A stretch of 64,000 bases of DNA from an uncultured Clostridia bacterium (lineage in GTDB: Bacteria; Bacillota; Clostridia; Saccharofermentanales; Saccharofermentanaceae): the NCBI GenBank assembly GCA_947303255.1, contig CAMYXL010000001.1:18231-82230 (forward strand). The letters run 5' to 3'. This document shows, one piece after another, positions 47,550-64,000 of this stretch; the first letter of the stretch is position 1, and every line of letters begins with the position of its first letter. A model generated the notes under the pieces. The model did no database searches. It worked only from the letters and a program-made list of their open reading frames with translations, and had not been told where the DNA came from. Both the position numbers and the translations under genes were made by a program.

Positions 47550-47640
47550 AATGCCGTGAAGTTGTTATAGTTAAGCCGTTATTATATAATCTCGGTGTAA
47601 GTTCGCCGCCTTTTTCGAGCGGCAGGAAAAAGAGGTTAGT

Positions 47641-58301: not shown

Positions 58302-58424
58302 GCAATTTGAAAACAAAATAGAATAAACTATTTGCAAGCCTGAGATATATACACCCTTAGCTTAAATGTTAGAATTATACCGTAAGTTTAAAGCTTGTTT
58401 CTTTATACGTTATGGAGTAAAAAA

Positions 58425-59315
58425 ATGACAAACATCAAGATTCATCAGTGCCCGTCCTGCGGCGGCAATCTCACCGTAGACAACGACAGACAAATGTATC
58501 ATTGCTCTTTCTGCGGCAGCTCTTTCGATTATGAGTATTTTCGAGAAGAACAGGCTCATGAGATGGGCGAGAAATACTTAAGCAGAGGCGAGTATGCCGC
58601 AGCTATCGATCTTTATAAGTTCGTATTGGATAAGAATCCGCATGATTTTATTTCTCTCAGGGGTCTGATGCTCGCGTCGGCACGCCTGAAGGAGATGAAG
58701 GAACTGACCTCCAAAGTCGGCACTGAAGGTTTCTCATATGACACAAAGCAGGTTGATTTCATCTGCGGCAGTGCTTCTCCGGATGACAAAGAATATTTTG
58801 ACGGTATGTCAAAGATTTATTCCGATATTAAGTCCGTCTCGGCCCTGGTCGAAGAGCAGAATGTTCTTCGTAAGGAAAAGAGGAGGATCGAGGACAAGAT
58901 CCATCTCGAGCTCAAGAGCCGTGAAGAGTGCAGTGTCAAAGACAGATACGGAACCGGACATGATCCGATAAAGGCTTTTATAGCGATGACCGCTATCTGC
59001 GGATTTTTCCTTCTGGTAATCCTCGTCCTGGTGATAGTAGGACTTTTTACGGAAGATTGGGTAGTCGGAATCGGTTTTATGCTCCTTCTTCTGGCGGTCC
59101 CGTTGACAATCATCGATTTTTTGATAGTATTCCCGCGCTTCAAGAAGGCAAGGGAGATCGATGCCAGGATCGGTAAATACGGCATCGAGTCCGGCAAGCG
59201 TCAGAGAAGGATCAACGAGCTGGGCGAGCTGATCGACAAGGAGTCTTCAGCCATCAAGCATGCGTGCTCCGACCTTATGAAGAAGGACACAAAGATCATG
59301 AATGAACTCAAATAA
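58425..59315 (+). CDS. Hypothetical protein: Zn-ribbon, helical/coiled-coil region and two TM segments
   Basis: CPSCGG...CSFCG at the N-terminus, a TPR-like helix pair, a coiled coil and two hydrophobic segments. ATG at 58425 after GGAG. Confidence 0.65.
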   Translation: MTNIKIHQCPSCGGNLTVDNDRQMYHCSFCGSSFDYEYFREEQAHEMGEKYLSRGEYAAAIDLYKFVLDKNPHDFISLRGLMLASARLKEMKELTSKVGTEGFSYDTKQVDFICGSASPDDKEYFDGMSKIYSDIKSVSALVEEQNVLRKEKRRIEDKIHLELKSREECSVKDRYGTGHDPIKAFIAMTAICGFFLLVILVLVIVGLFTEDWVVGIGFMLLLLAVPLTIIDFLIVFPRFKKAREIDARIGKYGIESGKRQRRINELGELIDKESSAIKHACSDLMKKDTKIMNELK

Positions 59316-59320
59316 TATAA

Positions 59321-59345
59321 GTGACTGTCTCATTGAGGCAGTCAC
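59321..59345. terminator. Hairpin after the hypothetical gene
   Basis: GTGACTGTCTC-att-GAGGCAGTCAC. Confidence 0.6.
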
Positions 59346-59360
59346 TAAATATTTGTAGGA

Positions 59361-59592
59361 ATACTAACCTGATCGGTCTTTTTTGTAAATAAGGTTAGTA
59401 TAAATCGGTCTTACAAATAATCGAGTACTAACCCTTTTTTCGAAAACATGCATGATGGTAAGTGTTTTTCTACATGATCGAAAATAAAATACTAACCTAA
59501 AACGCGATAATTGCCATATTGATTAGTACGACTTCAGATTTCCGGCGAAATATACTAACCTTTTGGCAGATTTTCACGATTTTGATCAGTAC
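59361..59592. repeat. Phased array of four 63-64-bp units, each TACTAACC-N23-GGTTAGTA
   Basis: Forward cores at 59362, 59426, 59490 and 59553; reverse cores at 59393, 59457, 59521 and 59584 (the last three degenerate). Confidence 0.75.
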
Positions 59593-59659: not shown

Positions 59660-59733
59660 AGTCAAAAAAAGTCAAAAAGCTATTGACAAACACTGAAAAC
59701 GGGACGATAATACTAATATCAAAGAAAGTCAAA
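59660..59733 (+). promoter_or_regulatory. CtsR-repressed sigma-A promoter
   Basis: CtsR box AGTCAAA-AAA-AGTCAAA (59660-59676); -35 TTGACA (59683); -10 GATAAT (59706, 17-bp spacer); second box TATCAAA-GAA-AGTCAAA (59717-59733), with further GTCAAA copies downstream. Confidence 0.88.
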
Positions 59734-59781: not shown

Positions 59782-60252
59782 GTGGCTAGACTCGTTGATG
59801 TTATAGAGTTAATGATCAAAGAGATGCTGGACGAGAACAACGGCAAGGCGACCATAAGCAGAAGCGATCTCGCTGAGAGAGCGAACTGCGTGCCTTCGCA
59901 GATAACCTACGTGTTGTCCACCAGATTCTCGTCAGGTAACGGATATATAGTCGAGAGCCGAAGAGGCGGCGGCGGACAGATCACCATCAGGCGAGCGAAG
60001 ATCATCAGCAAGGGAGAGTACCTGCAGTCGGTGCTTAACGCGGTAGGCAATGATCTTACTCAGCAGCAGGCGAAGATCTATCTGACCAATCTCGTATCGA
60101 GCGGTGCGATCTCACCTCATGAGGCGACAGTCGTTATGGCGACGGTGTCGGACAGAGCTCTGGTCCATGTTGATTCCGATATAAGGTCTGTGGTAAGAGC
60201 CGATATTTTCAAGAATGCTTTGGTAAGTCTGATGTTAGACGGTGCGAGCTGA
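59782..60252 (+). CDS. ctsR: Class III stress gene repressor CtsR
   Basis: MARLVDVIE, LAERANCVPSQITYVLSTRF, GYIVESRRGGGG. GTG start after GGGAGG. Confidence 0.95.
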   Translation: MARLVDVIELMIKEMLDENNGKATISRSDLAERANCVPSQITYVLSTRFSSGNGYIVESRRGGGGQITIRRAKIISKGEYLQSVLNAVGNDLTQQQAKIYLTNLVSSGAISPHEATVVMATVSDRALVHVDSDIRSVVRADIFKNALVSLMLDGAS

Positions 60253-60268
60253 AAGGAAGTGATACATA

Positions 60269-60898
60269 ATGCGTTGTGAAAGATGCGGAAAGATAGTAGA
60301 TAAATCATATACAAATTATAACGGCAGGTTTTTCTGTCCGGAATGTGCCAAGGAGTTGGGACTTCCTGATGCGGCTACTCTTGCCAGCAGTGCATTCAGG
60401 TTCCTGGATGACGGACTTACGTCATTCTTCCCTCTCATGAGAGAGCAGTTGGAGTTCTCCCCTACGAGAAGCCAGATCAAATGCCCTAAGTGCGGTACGA
60501 CTCTGAAGGAGTTCGAAGCAACGGGCAATCTCGGATGCATTGAGTGCTACAACACTTTTAATGAATCCGTTATGAGACTTCTCATGAGACTTCAGGCAGA
60601 CAACCACTATAGAGGAAGGTCTCCGGGTATCGCATCCGAACCTATGGAAGACAGCAAAGAGACCAAGGAGATCGATGCAGCAGAGATCGGTTCCAATTCC
60701 GAGAGCAAGGAGCCTGAGGTTTCTCCTGCCAAGGAGATCGCGGCTGACGAGAATAAGCTCCTCAAGTATTCCAATGCAGATATCGGAATGCTCACTAACG
60801 AGGACTTAAACGAAGCCATCAAACTAGCTGTAGCTCATGAAGATTACCTTCTTGCAGCAAAATTCAGAGATGAACTCAGAAGCAGGGAGGGCGTGTAA
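60269..60898 (+). CDS. mcsA: McsA (CxxC motifs plus UVR domain)
   Basis: CERC, CPEC, CPKC, GNLGCIECY; UVR-like LNEAIKLAVAHEDYLLAAKFRDELR. Confidence 0.9.
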   Translation: MRCERCGKIVDKSYTNYNGRFFCPECAKELGLPDAATLASSAFRFLDDGLTSFFPLMREQLEFSPTRSQIKCPKCGTTLKEFEATGNLGCIECYNTFNESVMRLLMRLQADNHYRGRSPGIASEPMEDSKETKEIDAAEIGSNSESKEPEVSPAKEIAADENKLLKYSNADIGMLTNEDLNEAIKLAVAHEDYLLAAKFRDELRSREGV

Positions 60899-61876
60899 AT
60901 GAAGTGGTACGAAGAAAACGGTGAGAACAGTGATGTTATCCTTACATCAAGAGTCGTTGTGAGGCGTAACATAAAAGGATATTCCTTCCCTTCGAAAATG
61001 GATGACAGCGAGCGCGAGACCGTACAGCATCTCGTTACTGCAAAGGCAGAGGAGCTCGGTTACGAAGTAAAGATCGAGGAGCCTGCTTCGAATATTCCTG
61101 ATGCGCTCAAAAAGCGCGGCAGTGACGCCATGTTCCAGAGCAGTGACGAAGCGATCGGTGCCATGATCAACAAGATCAACCACCTGACCTTCTACGGAAA
61201 CATCAGAGGCTCCAATGTCAAAGAGATGTTCACGAGAGTCGAGAAGATGGTCATCGATTTCGAGAGAGCATTCGATATGGCTTATTCCGAGAGATTGGGC
61301 TTCCTTACGGCAGAACCTCAGAACGTAGGTTCCGGAATCACGGTGGATATCGTTGTAGCTATTCCGGGAATCGTTAAGTCGGGAACTTTCCCTTCACTTC
61401 AGAAGAAGCTTACGGTTGCCGAGTGGAGACTTAAGCCTTACATCAATCAGAACAGCGGCATCAAAAGACCTGAGACTTTGTTCTCTCTTACCAATGTCGC
61501 TACTCTCGGCATCGGTGAAGACAAGCTCTACGAGCGCGCCATCACGATAATCAACGACATCATCAAAGTCGAGCGTATGTGCCGTGAGGCTATCTATAAG
61601 AAGAACAGACTGGTCGTCGAAGATCAGTACTACAGAGGATACGGACTTTTGAAGTTCTGCAGGAAGATCGAACTTCCTGAGGCACTCGAAGTACTCGGCT
61701 GGATCAGATTCGGCTTAGGTCTTATCGATGACAAGGAAACGGGGATCACACTCTCCGTCATTAATGAGATAACAGAAAAACTATGTAAAGAATACGACCT
61801 GCATCCGCGCAGCTTCAACAGACACAATGAGCAGCGTGCAGCGTATATCAAGGAAATACTGGAAAGGGGTGAATGA
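60899..61876 (+). CDS. mcsB: McsB homolog with a degenerate arginine-kinase active site
   Basis: Position in the ctsR operon; [44 protein letters not shown]. The NEED and CPTN motifs are absent. Confidence 0.85.
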
Positions 61877-64000
61877 TCATGAAATTTGGAGAAGGTGCCA
61901 TTCAATTGATATCTGATTCCTGGCTTTTCGCCAAGGCATTCAAATGTGAGACGATCGGAAGCGAATTCCTGCTTCTTGCCATGTGCAATCTCAATTGCCC
62001 TGCCAAGAATATTCTTGAAGTTCAGGGTATTACCGATGAGAAGGTAATCGAGTGTATCGAAAGAAACGAGAGAACAACAATGCAAAAGCCGAGCGACGAA
62101 GAGATCGCCAGCATCGACTTTGAAGAAGGTCTTCACGCTTGCCGTGTTGATACAAAGCGAGTACTTGCAGAGGCCGATATCGTTGCCAACAGATTCGGTG
62201 ACGGAATCGTTACTCCTGAGCATATCTTAAGTGTCCTTGCCTCGAAAAGGAGTTTTACAGCTGCCAAGATCATGATCTACCTCAATGCAGATCTTGAGGC
62301 CATCAGACAGCAGACACTCGCTGCTATCATGGGTTCAGGAGACGACGACTTTATGGACGGCGGTTCCTCTGAAGAATCTCCGCGTCAGTCTGCAGCAGCA
62401 AATCTGGCCAGAATGGGCTCGAAAAAGAGCGCAAAGGGCAAGCATCCTACATTGGACAAGTTTGGTAAGAATCTTACTCAGCTTGCCAAGGACGGCAAGA
62501 TCGATCCGGTTATCGGAAGAGAAGAAGAGATCAACCGTGTAATGCAGATCCTCGCCAGAAGAACAAAGAACAATCCTTGTCTCGTTGGTGAGCCTGGTGT
62601 AGGTAAGACAGCTATCGCTGAAGGCCTTGCACTTAAGATCGCTGAAGGAGACGTACCTGATATCCTTAAGGGTAAGACTGTATTCAATATCGAAGTAGGC
62701 TCAATGGTTGCAGGTTCCAAGTTCAGAGGTGACTTTGAAGAGAGGATCCAGAAGGTCCTTGATGAAGCATCCTCCAACGAAGACATCATCCTCTTTATCG
62801 ATGAGATCCATACTCTCGTAGGAGCAGGTGACGGCGGCAACGGTTCCCTTGATGCAGCAAACATCATGAAGCCGATGCTCACAAAGGGCGAGCTTCAGAT
62901 CATCGGTGCTACGACACTTGATGAATACAGCAAGATCATCGAGAAAGATTCAGCTCTCGAGAGAAGATTCCAGAAAGTTCTTATCGAAGAACCTTCACAG
63001 GCAGATGCCATCCTTATCCTTAAGGGACTTCGCCCGCGTTACGAAGAGCATCACAAGATCAAGATCAGTGATGAGGCTATCGAACAGGCAGTTCTCCTGT
63101 CGACCAGATATCTGTCCGACAGATTCCTTCCTGATAAAGCCATCGACCTTATCGATGAGGCAGCAGCGAAAAAGAGGATCAACTTCCAGGTATCCACGGA
63201 ACTTAATACCCTCACCAGCAGACTTACTGAAGTAGGTAACCTCAAGAAGGTCGCTGCTGAGAAGATGGAGTTTGAGAAAGCTCAGGAACTTCACGTTCAG
63301 GAGCAGGAGATCGAGAAGAGGATCGAGGAACTTAAAAATACCAACAAGCCGGATAACGACGGCTTTACAGGTGAGCTCACCGTAGAAGATATCGCAGAAG
63401 TCCTTGCCAAGTGGTCAGGTATCCCTGTATCTAAGATCACGGAGTCTGATGCAGAGAAGCTTAAGACATTGGAGGATGAGCTTAAGTCAAGAGTTATCGG
63501 TCAGGATGAGGCAGTAAGTGCCATTGCACGTGCCATCAGAAGAAGCCGTCTGGGTCTTAAGGATCCTAAGCGTCCTTCCGGATCGTTCATCTTCCTCGGT
63601 ACTACCGGTGTAGGTAAGACTGAGCTTGCAAGAGCACTCGCAGAGGTAATGTTCGGTAATGAGAATGCACTTGTCAGGATCGATATGTCCGAGTACATGG
63701 AAAAGCACGATGTAAGTAAACTCATCGGATCGCCTCCGGGCTATGTCGGATACGATGAGGGAGGTCAGCTTACAGAGAAGATAAGAAGACATCCTTATTC
63801 GGTAGTCCTTTTCGATGAGATAGAGAAGGCGCATCCTGATATCTTTAACAGCATGCTCCAGATCCTGGATGACGGAAGACTTACTGACGGTAAGGGCCGG
63901 CTCGTAGATTTTAAGAATACTATTATAATAATGACTTCTAATATAGGTGCGCGTATGCTCACTGCAGAAGCGAGCCGCAAGATCGGATTCGAGCTCGAGG
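61873..64000 (+). CDS. clpC: ClpC AAA+ unfoldase (partial; runs off the window end)
   Basis: Not in the ORF track (no stop in window). Translated in frame from ATG 61873 (alternative start 61879): two Clp N repeats, [27 protein letters not shown] (62587), [26 protein letters not shown], second Walker [45 protein letters not shown]. Confidence 0.96.

Follow-up and report, generated by a model that had tools for sequence, protein, structure and literature searches.

The 64,000-nucleotide stretch of DNA considered here, hereafter the window, comes from an uncultured Clostridia bacterium of the family Saccharofermentanaceae (assembly GCA_947303255.1, contig CAMYXL010000001.1, positions 18,231 to 82,230 of the forward strand). 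Between 59.6 and 64.0 kb, its + strand carries a classical class III heat-shock operon with the gene order ctsR-mcsA-mcsB-clpC. The third gene occupies the place of mcsB, the gene of the protein arginine kinase EC 2.7.14.1, and its product, called below the McsB-like protein or McsB*, is the subject of this work. The features of the locus are the following:

59320-59346: terminator of the upstream gene, between the gene at 58395-59315 and ctsR
59660..59676, + strand: CtsR operator, a perfect heptad direct repeat AGTCAAAAAAAGTCAAA with 0 mismatches to RGTCAAANANRGTCAAA, abutting the -35 hexamer
59683..59711, + strand: putative sigma-70-type promoter of the operon, TTGACA, 17 nt spacer and GATAAT, 11/12 consensus positions, by consensus match only
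59717..59733, + strand: second, imperfect CtsR box (TATCAAAGAAAGTCAAA) with 2 mismatches, just 3' of the -10 hexamer
59782..60252, + strand: ctsR, 156 amino acids (aa) from a GTG start (the mechanical start of the open reading frame is 59683), Pfam CtsR and CtsR_C
60269..60898, + strand: mcsA-like gene, 209 aa, with a pair of CxxC-CxxC zinc ribbons, then a long acidic linker, and a UVR motif at the C-terminus
60899..61876, + strand: mcsB-like gene of the putative pseudokinase, 325 aa, with a kinase-like domain (~1-205) and a dimerisation domain (~206-325)
61879..64000, + strand: clpC, first 707 codons, continuing past the end of the window, with a strongly diverged N-terminal domain

The mcsB-like open reading frame (ORF) directly abuts mcsA (stop at 60898), and the ATG of clpC (61879) lies 2 nt downstream. 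A preliminary description of this DNA had reported an ORF that is intact, adjoins mcsA and clpC and retains its C-terminal domain, all of which is correct. The genomic context is that of a genuine mcsB, i.e. ctsR-mcsA-mcsB-clpC under a CtsR operator, and in the clade of relatives defined below this order is kept in every locus whose DNA reaches the flanking genes. A box identical to the operator at 59660..59676 is also present 5' of ctsR in four relatives (L005, L006, L017 and L028). The second box is weak taken singly, at least two matches being obtained in 13 of 100 shuffles. An Rfam scan of the window returned no matches.

The CtsR protein is canonical: it aligns with the solved structure 3h0d at E = 6e-26, its RGGGG wing loop is kept, and the 156-aa product is called in relatives too. 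McsA aligns over its second zinc-finger (Z2) domain with B. subtilis 8wtb_B (E = 1.4e-9) and with S. aureus 8gqd_E. Both of its CxxC-CxxC zinc fingers and the UVR/coiled-coil end are kept (with a weak Pfam UVR match), and it scores 52.6 bits against an NCBIfam McsA cut-off of 210. Between the Z2 zinc finger and the UVR motif, residues ~118-170 of this McsA form a long acidic linker rich in Ser, Glu and Pro, which has no equivalent in B. subtilis McsA (a 187-residue chain in 8wtb).

The McsB-like protein is recognised by the Pfam profile ATP-gua_Ptrans (PF00217) with 80.5 bits, for a cut-off of 22.4, and the dimerisation-domain family McsB_C (PF27454) is precomputed for it and for its homologues. 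When phmmer was run against PDB sequences, B. subtilis McsB (8wtb/6tv6) ranked first, with E of about 1e-27. An AlphaFold2 (AF2) model of the protein was obtained with a predicted local distance difference test score (pLDDT) of 78 and a predicted template-modelling score (pTM) of 0.75. Foldseek placed McsB structures (6fh1, 6fh3 and 6tv6) at the top of the matches to this model, with template-modelling (TM) scores of 0.73-0.77 across the full length. Because the model superposes on the solved McsB structures over its whole length, the McsB fold, including the dimerisation domain, is predicted to be preserved. The thresholds of the curated families are not reached, with 153 bits for the 385 of NCBIfam NF002194 and 125.9 for the 500 of NF053707, and the close homologues P0002 and P0010 carry the NCBI label "hypothetical protein".

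Residues are numbered below after B. subtilis McsB unless marked as those of the window protein; positions were taken from an alignment with 156 family members, in which 99 representatives served as the canonical reference, and residue roles from PMC8370763, PMC11046695, PMC12467219, PMC12583610 and bioRxiv 10.1101/2025.11.26.690658. The catalytic Cys and the NEEDH motif are named as the catalytic site of McsB (PMC11046695; PMC12467219), C167A has been used as an inactive McsB mutant (PMC11046695), and Cys157 of S. aureus McsB is called "catalytically essential" (PMC12467219). In the window protein, none of the seven core catalytic or ATP-binding residues (R31, E121, R125, C167, R176, R207 and E212) is kept, and E120, D122, G208 and G211 are lost in addition.

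The preliminary description had listed altered segments as signs of a systematic loss of the catalytic motifs, and the alignment recovers each of them. The change of SSRIRLARN to TSRVVVRRN, seen in the phmmer alignment to 8wtb/6tv6 and against the 99 canonical sequences, replaces R31 by V20 and A33 by R22 and retains R29 and R34. In the segment corresponding to LNEEDHIRIQ, E120 becomes K92, E121 I93, D122 N94 and R125 T97, with H123 retained as H95; in the one corresponding to LTSCPTNVGTGLRAS, C167 becomes E139 and R176 T148. The change of VRGIYGEGS to LKPYINQNS replaces R207 by K179, G208 by P180 and E212 by Q184. The "EKHLIS" deletion is real as well, the E89-S94 segment with its conserved E89 and S94 being gapped in the window protein and in its seven closest relatives. 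As for the positions of two of these segments, MINK does lie at 61163, whereas GFLT starts at 61298 and not at 61301.

The NEEDH motif therefore reads NKINH, with its His alone kept, and a Cys occupies the C167 position in 0/33 members of the clade. Among the five ATP arginines, R29 (R18 in the window protein) is the sole one kept, the others being V20, T97, T148 and K179, and R18 itself is retained in just 39% of the clade. We take R29, R31, R125, R176, R207 and E212 (the last in the lid loop) to be ATP-binding positions from what is known of phosphagen kinases and from their 100% conservation across canonical McsB. At R194, the site of autophosphorylation, the window protein has S166.

Such a pattern goes beyond what general divergence would produce. 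The window protein keeps 27 of the 48 columns that are at least 90% conserved in canonical McsB, but these are distributed very unevenly: 0/9 catalytic, NEED or ATP-arginine columns against 27/39 of the remaining ones (Fisher p = 1.8e-4). The conserved columns of the dimerisation domain are all kept (10/10). The catalytic loss is therefore targeted. The protein is a homologue without the conserved catalytic motifs, as in the definition of a pseudoenzyme, and its sequence makes it very probably dead as an arginine kinase. Since it lacks the defining catalytic features and falls below the curated thresholds, it should not be annotated as a "protein arginine kinase".

Some traits of the former active site call for caution on this point. 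H95 (the His of NEEDH), R23-N24, E131 and G144/G146 are invariant in the clade, and the kinase-like domain is constrained as strongly as the dimerisation domain, which would suit a protein that is still an enzyme and performs phosphotransfer, or a new activity, by means of relocated or non-canonical residues. We nevertheless regard this as very unlikely, because no acidic or Cys residue is conserved clade-wide at or beside the lost positions. E121 is replaced by I, G, V or K and C167 by E, D, S, R or N, differing among members, and the ATP arginines gave way to T, V, K or Q without a consistent substitute. The residues that are newly conserved are W, P and C228, and the last of these lies in the dimerisation helix.

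The surfaces of McsB* have not all followed the same course. The loop of McsB that contacts the zinc finger of McsA corresponds to Y147-Y153 in S. aureus (PMC12467219). In the window protein this loop comprises A128-S130-E131-G134-F135-L136; it varies hardly or not at all within the clade, and is among the two most conserved stretches of the clade McsB. The dimer salt bridge is kept as well, R262-E277 of S. aureus and R272-E287 of B. subtilis being R246-E261 in the window protein. The allosteric pocket by which McsB itself receives phosphoarginine (pArg) consists of R337, R341, S285 and D338 (PMC8370763; bioRxiv 10.1101/2025.11.26.690658). In the window protein, R337 is replaced by H309, D338 by N310 and S285 by L259, and only R341 is kept, as R313. 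The same holds across the clade (n = 33), where R341 is found in 30/33 members and D338 in at most 1/33, R337 and S285 being outside the four commonest residues at their positions; in canonical McsB (n = 99), R337 is present in 67/99 and D338 in 77/99. Three residues are newly conserved in this clade only, namely W176 and P180, which lie in the former lid loop, and C228 of the dimerisation helix; together they suggest a new surface.

The persistence of R341 from the former phosphate-binding pocket, the new W176 and P180 and the purifying selection on the kinase-like domain (see below) could also be read as those of a sensor of ligands or stress, in which the dead kinase domain would bind a small molecule or an unfolded protein and signal to McsA, CtsR or ClpC without phosphotransfer. 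This is unlikely: no ligand-binding motif can be named, and the proposal overlaps heavily with the explanation favoured below, from which it differs in its input alone.

The ratio of nonsynonymous to synonymous substitution rates (dN/dS) was calculated by the Nei-Gojobori method, for pairs with unsaturated dS only. The orthologues with available DNA have 97, 94, 85, 74, 72, 70, 42 and 38% protein identity, all of them in the ctsR-mcsA-mcsB-clpC arrangement. The values obtained were:

mcsB-like gene, whole: 0.05-0.10
mcsB kinase-like domain: 0.03-0.10
mcsB dimerisation domain: 0.05-0.11
ctsR: 0.02-0.10
mcsA: 0.08-0.14
clpC: 0.014-0.15

The mcsB-like gene is thus under strong purifying selection (0.05-0.10), and neutral evolution, which according to the preliminary description would have undone its proposal, is not what is observed. 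Free of frameshifts and stops, its ORF is intact in over 30 independent metagenome-assembled genomes (MAGs) and in one isolate, at 29-98% identity. The source is a bacterium of the ruminant gut. Its nearest genomes are MAGs that bear the label Clostridia or Ruminococcaceae bacterium, and near-identical DNA is found in cattle, goat and sheep gut metagenomes. Metatranscriptomes of the bovine rumen contain contigs that match the gene with 99-100% identity, although the depth of a contig does not measure expression and DNA may have been carried over. With its dN/dS, its metatranscriptome matches and its intact ORFs in a deep clade, the gene also has the purifying selection and expression that belong to the definition of a pseudoenzyme.

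Measured against ClpC and CtsR, the divergence of McsB* and McsA is faster than that of the canonical pairs: for a ClpC identity of ~68%, that of McsB* is ~37%, against ~40% for canonical McsB at a ClpC identity of ~60%. This acceleration is what might be expected from gene decay, by recent inactivation and neutral drift, or from an artefact of assembly or sequencing. Both are extremely improbable. Drift to a pseudogene is incompatible with the dN/dS values and with ORFs that stay intact throughout the clade, and an assembly artefact with the recovery of the gene from one isolate and from a large number of independent samples of cattle, goat, sheep, yak and horse; matching metatranscriptome contigs were detected besides.

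To describe the distribution of this type of McsB, a profile built from 15 close homologues was searched against 1.84 billion representative proteins, which yielded 5580 family members. The top ~30 clusters (50% identity) are all degenerate, with 0-3 of the seven catalytic residues, and they form one clade in a neighbour-joining tree, apart from the 99 fully canonical sequences. A scan of GTDB species representatives gave 56 loci, the fully degenerate type being present in about 32 species-level genomes. The members of the degenerate clade are labelled Saccharofermentans, Mageeibacillus sp. UBA6976, Ruminococcaceae, Oscillospiraceae or Clostridiales MAGs, and include the cultured isolate "Ruminococcaceae bacterium KHP2". 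Both Saccharofermentans and Mageeibacillus are Oscillospiraceae according to NCBI, and the MAGs come from cattle, yak, sheep, goat, deer, buffalo and horse. Within the clade, McsB identity descends to about 30% with the ORF still intact; the loss of catalysis is therefore ancient.

Scattered degenerate McsB sequences also occur within the canonical parts of the tree (P0070 at locus L071, P0056 at L072, P0148 at L073 and P0142 at L074). They have 0-1 of the seven catalytic residues and are independent of the main clade. P0056 and P0142 lie in a ctsR-mcsA-mcsB-clpC context and P0148 in mcsA-mcsB-clpC; the short contig of P0070 shows clpC downstream only. By this tree, the kinase site of McsB has been lost at least five times.

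A half-degenerate group was also observed (L044-L046, L048-L050, L052, L054, L055, L057 and L061, e.g. Firmicutes bacterium CAG:341 and Eubacterium sp. CAG:251). Here CEEDH and R29, R31 and R125 are kept, the Cys is changed to N or S and R176 to K, and the RGxxGE lid is lost; the ClpC N-domain of this group is fully canonical. These proteins may be weak or altered kinases. Two other members of the family, P0126 (541 aa) and P0162 (531 aa), are natural fusions of a McsA-like zinc-finger N-terminus to a canonical McsB (NEEDH or GEEDH, with the CP loop), which fits McsA being an obligate kinase subunit. The long proteins P0030, P0031, P0035, P0051 and P0081 from the profile search are tandem multi-domain phosphagen kinases, presumably eukaryotic, which mostly keep the canonical motifs; they are irrelevant here and were set aside.

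The other protein of the operon that departs from the canonical type is ClpC. The window ClpC is matched by Pfam AAA_2, AAA_lid_9 and AAA and by one Clp_N repeat only, and its N-domain-only PDB matches reach about 25 bits; in relatives, ClpC has 855-864 aa. In the ClpC N-domain, T7 lies in the pArg1 pocket, R9 and R122 are at or near the pockets, and the E32A/E106A change disables them (PMC12583610). The internal repeat suggests that T81-P82-R83 would be the repeat-2 counterpart of T7-E8-R9. In the window ClpC, R9 is replaced by G, H33 by F, T81-P82-R83 by R-V-D and T105 by P, and the equivalents of E32, K85 and E106 are kept. The N-domains of 47 genomes, 31 from the fully degenerate clade and 16 with half-degenerate or canonical McsB, were aligned and compared at these positions (B. 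subtilis numbering):

T81-P82-R83: R-[LIV]-[DE] in 31/31 of the degenerate clade; TPR in 16/16 of the half-degenerate or canonical genomes
R9: D, E, G or S in 31/31; R, K or Q in the half-degenerate or canonical genomes
H33: not His in the degenerate clade; H in 16/16
T105: P in 30/31; T in 14/16
E32 and E106: retained in 21/31 and 27/31, respectively; both E in 16/16
K85: K or R throughout the degenerate clade; K in 16/16

As the new residues are themselves conserved, these replacements point to an altered function of the N-domain rather than to decay.

The best explanation of these observations is that McsB* would be able neither to bind ATP productively nor to phosphorylate arginine, and would keep the fold, the dimerisation domain and the McsA-binding surface. 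We propose that it is the McsB orthologue of the operon, turned into a pseudokinase and with a partner role in the CtsR/ClpC circuit, a reading to which we assign a probability of roughly 0.6. The tagging of proteins with pArg by this operon has most likely been abandoned, because the kinase site, the pArg pocket of McsB and the TPR, R9 and H33 residues of ClpC, which lie at or near its pArg sites, have all changed, and the gut Clostridia clade probably runs its CtsR/ClpC quality control without arginine phosphorylation. The preliminary description had spoken of a kinase-dead McsB retained as an adaptor or scaffold: the loss of the kinase site and the retention under selection are borne out, and the role of adaptor or scaffold is an extrapolation from them.

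A possible mechanism can be drawn from these elements. The sequence shows an operon under CtsR, which would repress it through operators on both sides of the promoter. The Z2 zinc finger of McsA would bind the kinase-like domain of McsB* via the conserved loop, and two McsA-McsB* pairs would dimerise through the R246-E261 salt bridge. The complex would then act stoichiometrically rather than catalytically, as an adaptor or anti-repressor that needs no phosphorylation, by binding CtsR (sequestration) and/or by docking on the co-evolved N-domain of ClpC. The glycine loop of CtsR is an intrinsic thermosensor, and the release of CtsR upon heat could be left to it. In its widest form, the proposal would be that the rumen and gut Oscillospiraceae clade has rewired the pArg-tag system into a phosphorylation-free one, with McsA and a dead McsB as a stoichiometric adaptor or anti-repressor on the R-[LIV]-[DE] form of ClpC, and with McsB losses on at least five occasions. 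The repeated origin of McsB pseudokinases (at least five lineages) would imply that the non-catalytic scaffold function is ancestral and able to stand alone. This whole scenario is tentative, and we would place it below even odds.

Several points weigh against the pseudokinase-partner proposal. Pseudoenzymes are sometimes active through relocated residues, and the faster divergence of McsB* shows a constraint that is partly relaxed, but still strong. In B. subtilis, McsB has to be autophosphorylated both to serve as an adaptor and to capture CtsR (bioRxiv 10.1101/2025.11.26.690658), so that a phosphorylation-independent version needs a new and so far hypothetical interface. The equivalents of E32 and E106, the experimental targets for abolishing pArg binding, are still present in the window ClpC. 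The co-variation between the ClpC N-domain and McsB represents a single phylogenetic event. Furthermore, the dead McsB lineages of L071-L074 keep a canonical or near-canonical TPR motif in ClpC, so that the loss of the kinase need not entail a remodelled N-domain. A rule by which the writer and the reader of pArg are always lost together, which the main comparison would support (31/31 vs. 0/16), was rejected on the same grounds. The N-domain sites also serve resting-state contacts and the binding of MecA (PMC12583610), however, and may be retained in those lineages for reasons other than pArg.

The rest of the genome may also hold a second mcsB. With seven canonical McsB queries, tblastn found the present gene as sole match, in a search that covers the 64 kb window only and is weak as a test; likewise, the CxGNxCRS motif of YwlE-type low-molecular-weight protein tyrosine phosphatases is not present within the 64 kb window, which is again a weak test. 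A canonical mcsB elsewhere would make McsB* a regulatory paralogue, i.e. a decoy, an inactive heterodimer partner or a competitor for McsA, CtsR or ClpC, in cells where pArg persists. The fully conserved residues of the dimerisation interface make heterodimers conceivable, and the kept E32 and E106 of ClpC are consistent with pArg still being read. Such an arrangement is nonetheless quite unlikely, since the gene sits in the orthologous operon slot in every relative, and the clade-wide changes in the McsB pArg pocket and in TPR and R9 of ClpC would be unexpected with pArg in use. Furthermore, no second ATP-gua_Ptrans homologue is found in the 64 kb window, and the 56 GTDB loci gave one McsB-type match per record, with search patterns that are biased to the degenerate type.

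Two other observations concern the DNA upstream of the operon. The intergenic region 5' of the ctsR promoter is unusually long and contains five copies of the octamer TACTAACC at 59362-59560, four of them direct (59362, 59426, 59490 and 59553, with ~63 nt spacing) and one inverted (59393). A single further copy is found in the 64 kb, at 47634 on the - strand, and L005, L006 and L017, whose intergenic regions are shorter, lack the array. It could be a binding-site array or an insertion remnant. The product of the gene directly 5' of the operon (58395-59315) has 306 aa, with a zinc ribbon (CxxC...CxxC) at its N-terminus and hydrophobic segments at its C-terminus. A homologue lies at the equivalent position in L004-L007, with a weak Pfam Zn_Ribbon_TF match for L004 and L005 and none for L006 and L007.

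No dedicated protein-arginine kinase other than McsB is known, and pArg is seen as the equivalent, in Gram-positive bacteria, of ubiquitin as a degradation tag. Current models hold that McsB must autophosphorylate for CtsR to be captured, for McsB to oligomerise and for ClpC to be activated. A large and abundant group of gut and rumen Clostridia that keeps McsA and McsB minus the chemistry would be a natural separation-of-function experiment, and this clade should reveal what McsA-McsB does beyond phosphorylation. The isolate KHP2, Saccharofermentans acetigenes and Mageeibacillus indolicus offer cultured entry points. It also follows that the annotation "mcsB" in a genome is, by itself, an unsafe basis for inferring pArg signalling. 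In the literature searched in full text for McsB as a pseudokinase, a pseudoenzyme or an inactive protein, and for McsB in Clostridia, no protein-arginine pseudokinase of the phosphagen-kinase fold was found. The 2025 review of bacterial pseudokinases (PMC12599244) has McsB in its reference list only, and a review of pseudoenzymes (PMC10211241) does not mention McsB.

Compared with the McsB kinases of B. subtilis, Geobacillus stearothermophilus and S. aureus (6FH1, 6TV6, 8GQD and 8WTB), McsB* has in common the two-domain fold, the operon slot between mcsA and clpC, the CtsR operator, the McsA-contact loop and the residues of the dimerisation domain, including R272-E287 and R341. In contrast, it is about 25% identical to canonical McsB, the acids of NEEDH, the Cys, four of the five ATP arginines and the RGxxGE lid are replaced, and the E89-S94 segment, the R337/D338/S285 part of the pArg pocket and R194 are missing.

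Streptococci and lactococci have CtsR and a Clp ATPase, with neither mcsA nor mcsB. They likewise control Clp expression by CtsR without McsB-made pArg, and CtsR thermosensing would suffice for derepression. However, the genes have been deleted there, whereas here purifying selection maintains mcsA together with a dead mcsB, which implies that they still serve some purpose other than catalysis.

With the MecA-type adaptors of ClpC, McsB* would share its mode of action, i.e. a non-enzymatic docking on the ClpC N-domain leading to activation and substrate delivery. MecA covers both pArg sites of this domain (PMC12583610). McsB* is unrelated to MecA in sequence and fold, and its binding to ClpC is a prediction; the clade-specific and conserved remodelling of the ClpC N-domain points only indirectly to a role as ClpC adaptor. 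Finally, McsB* resembles the bacterial and eukaryotic pseudokinases under review (PMC12599244; PMC10211241) in being a degenerate homologue under selection, presumably acting as a scaffold or an allosteric regulator, but those are of the Hanks-type Ser/Thr family, whereas McsB* has the phosphagen-kinase fold.

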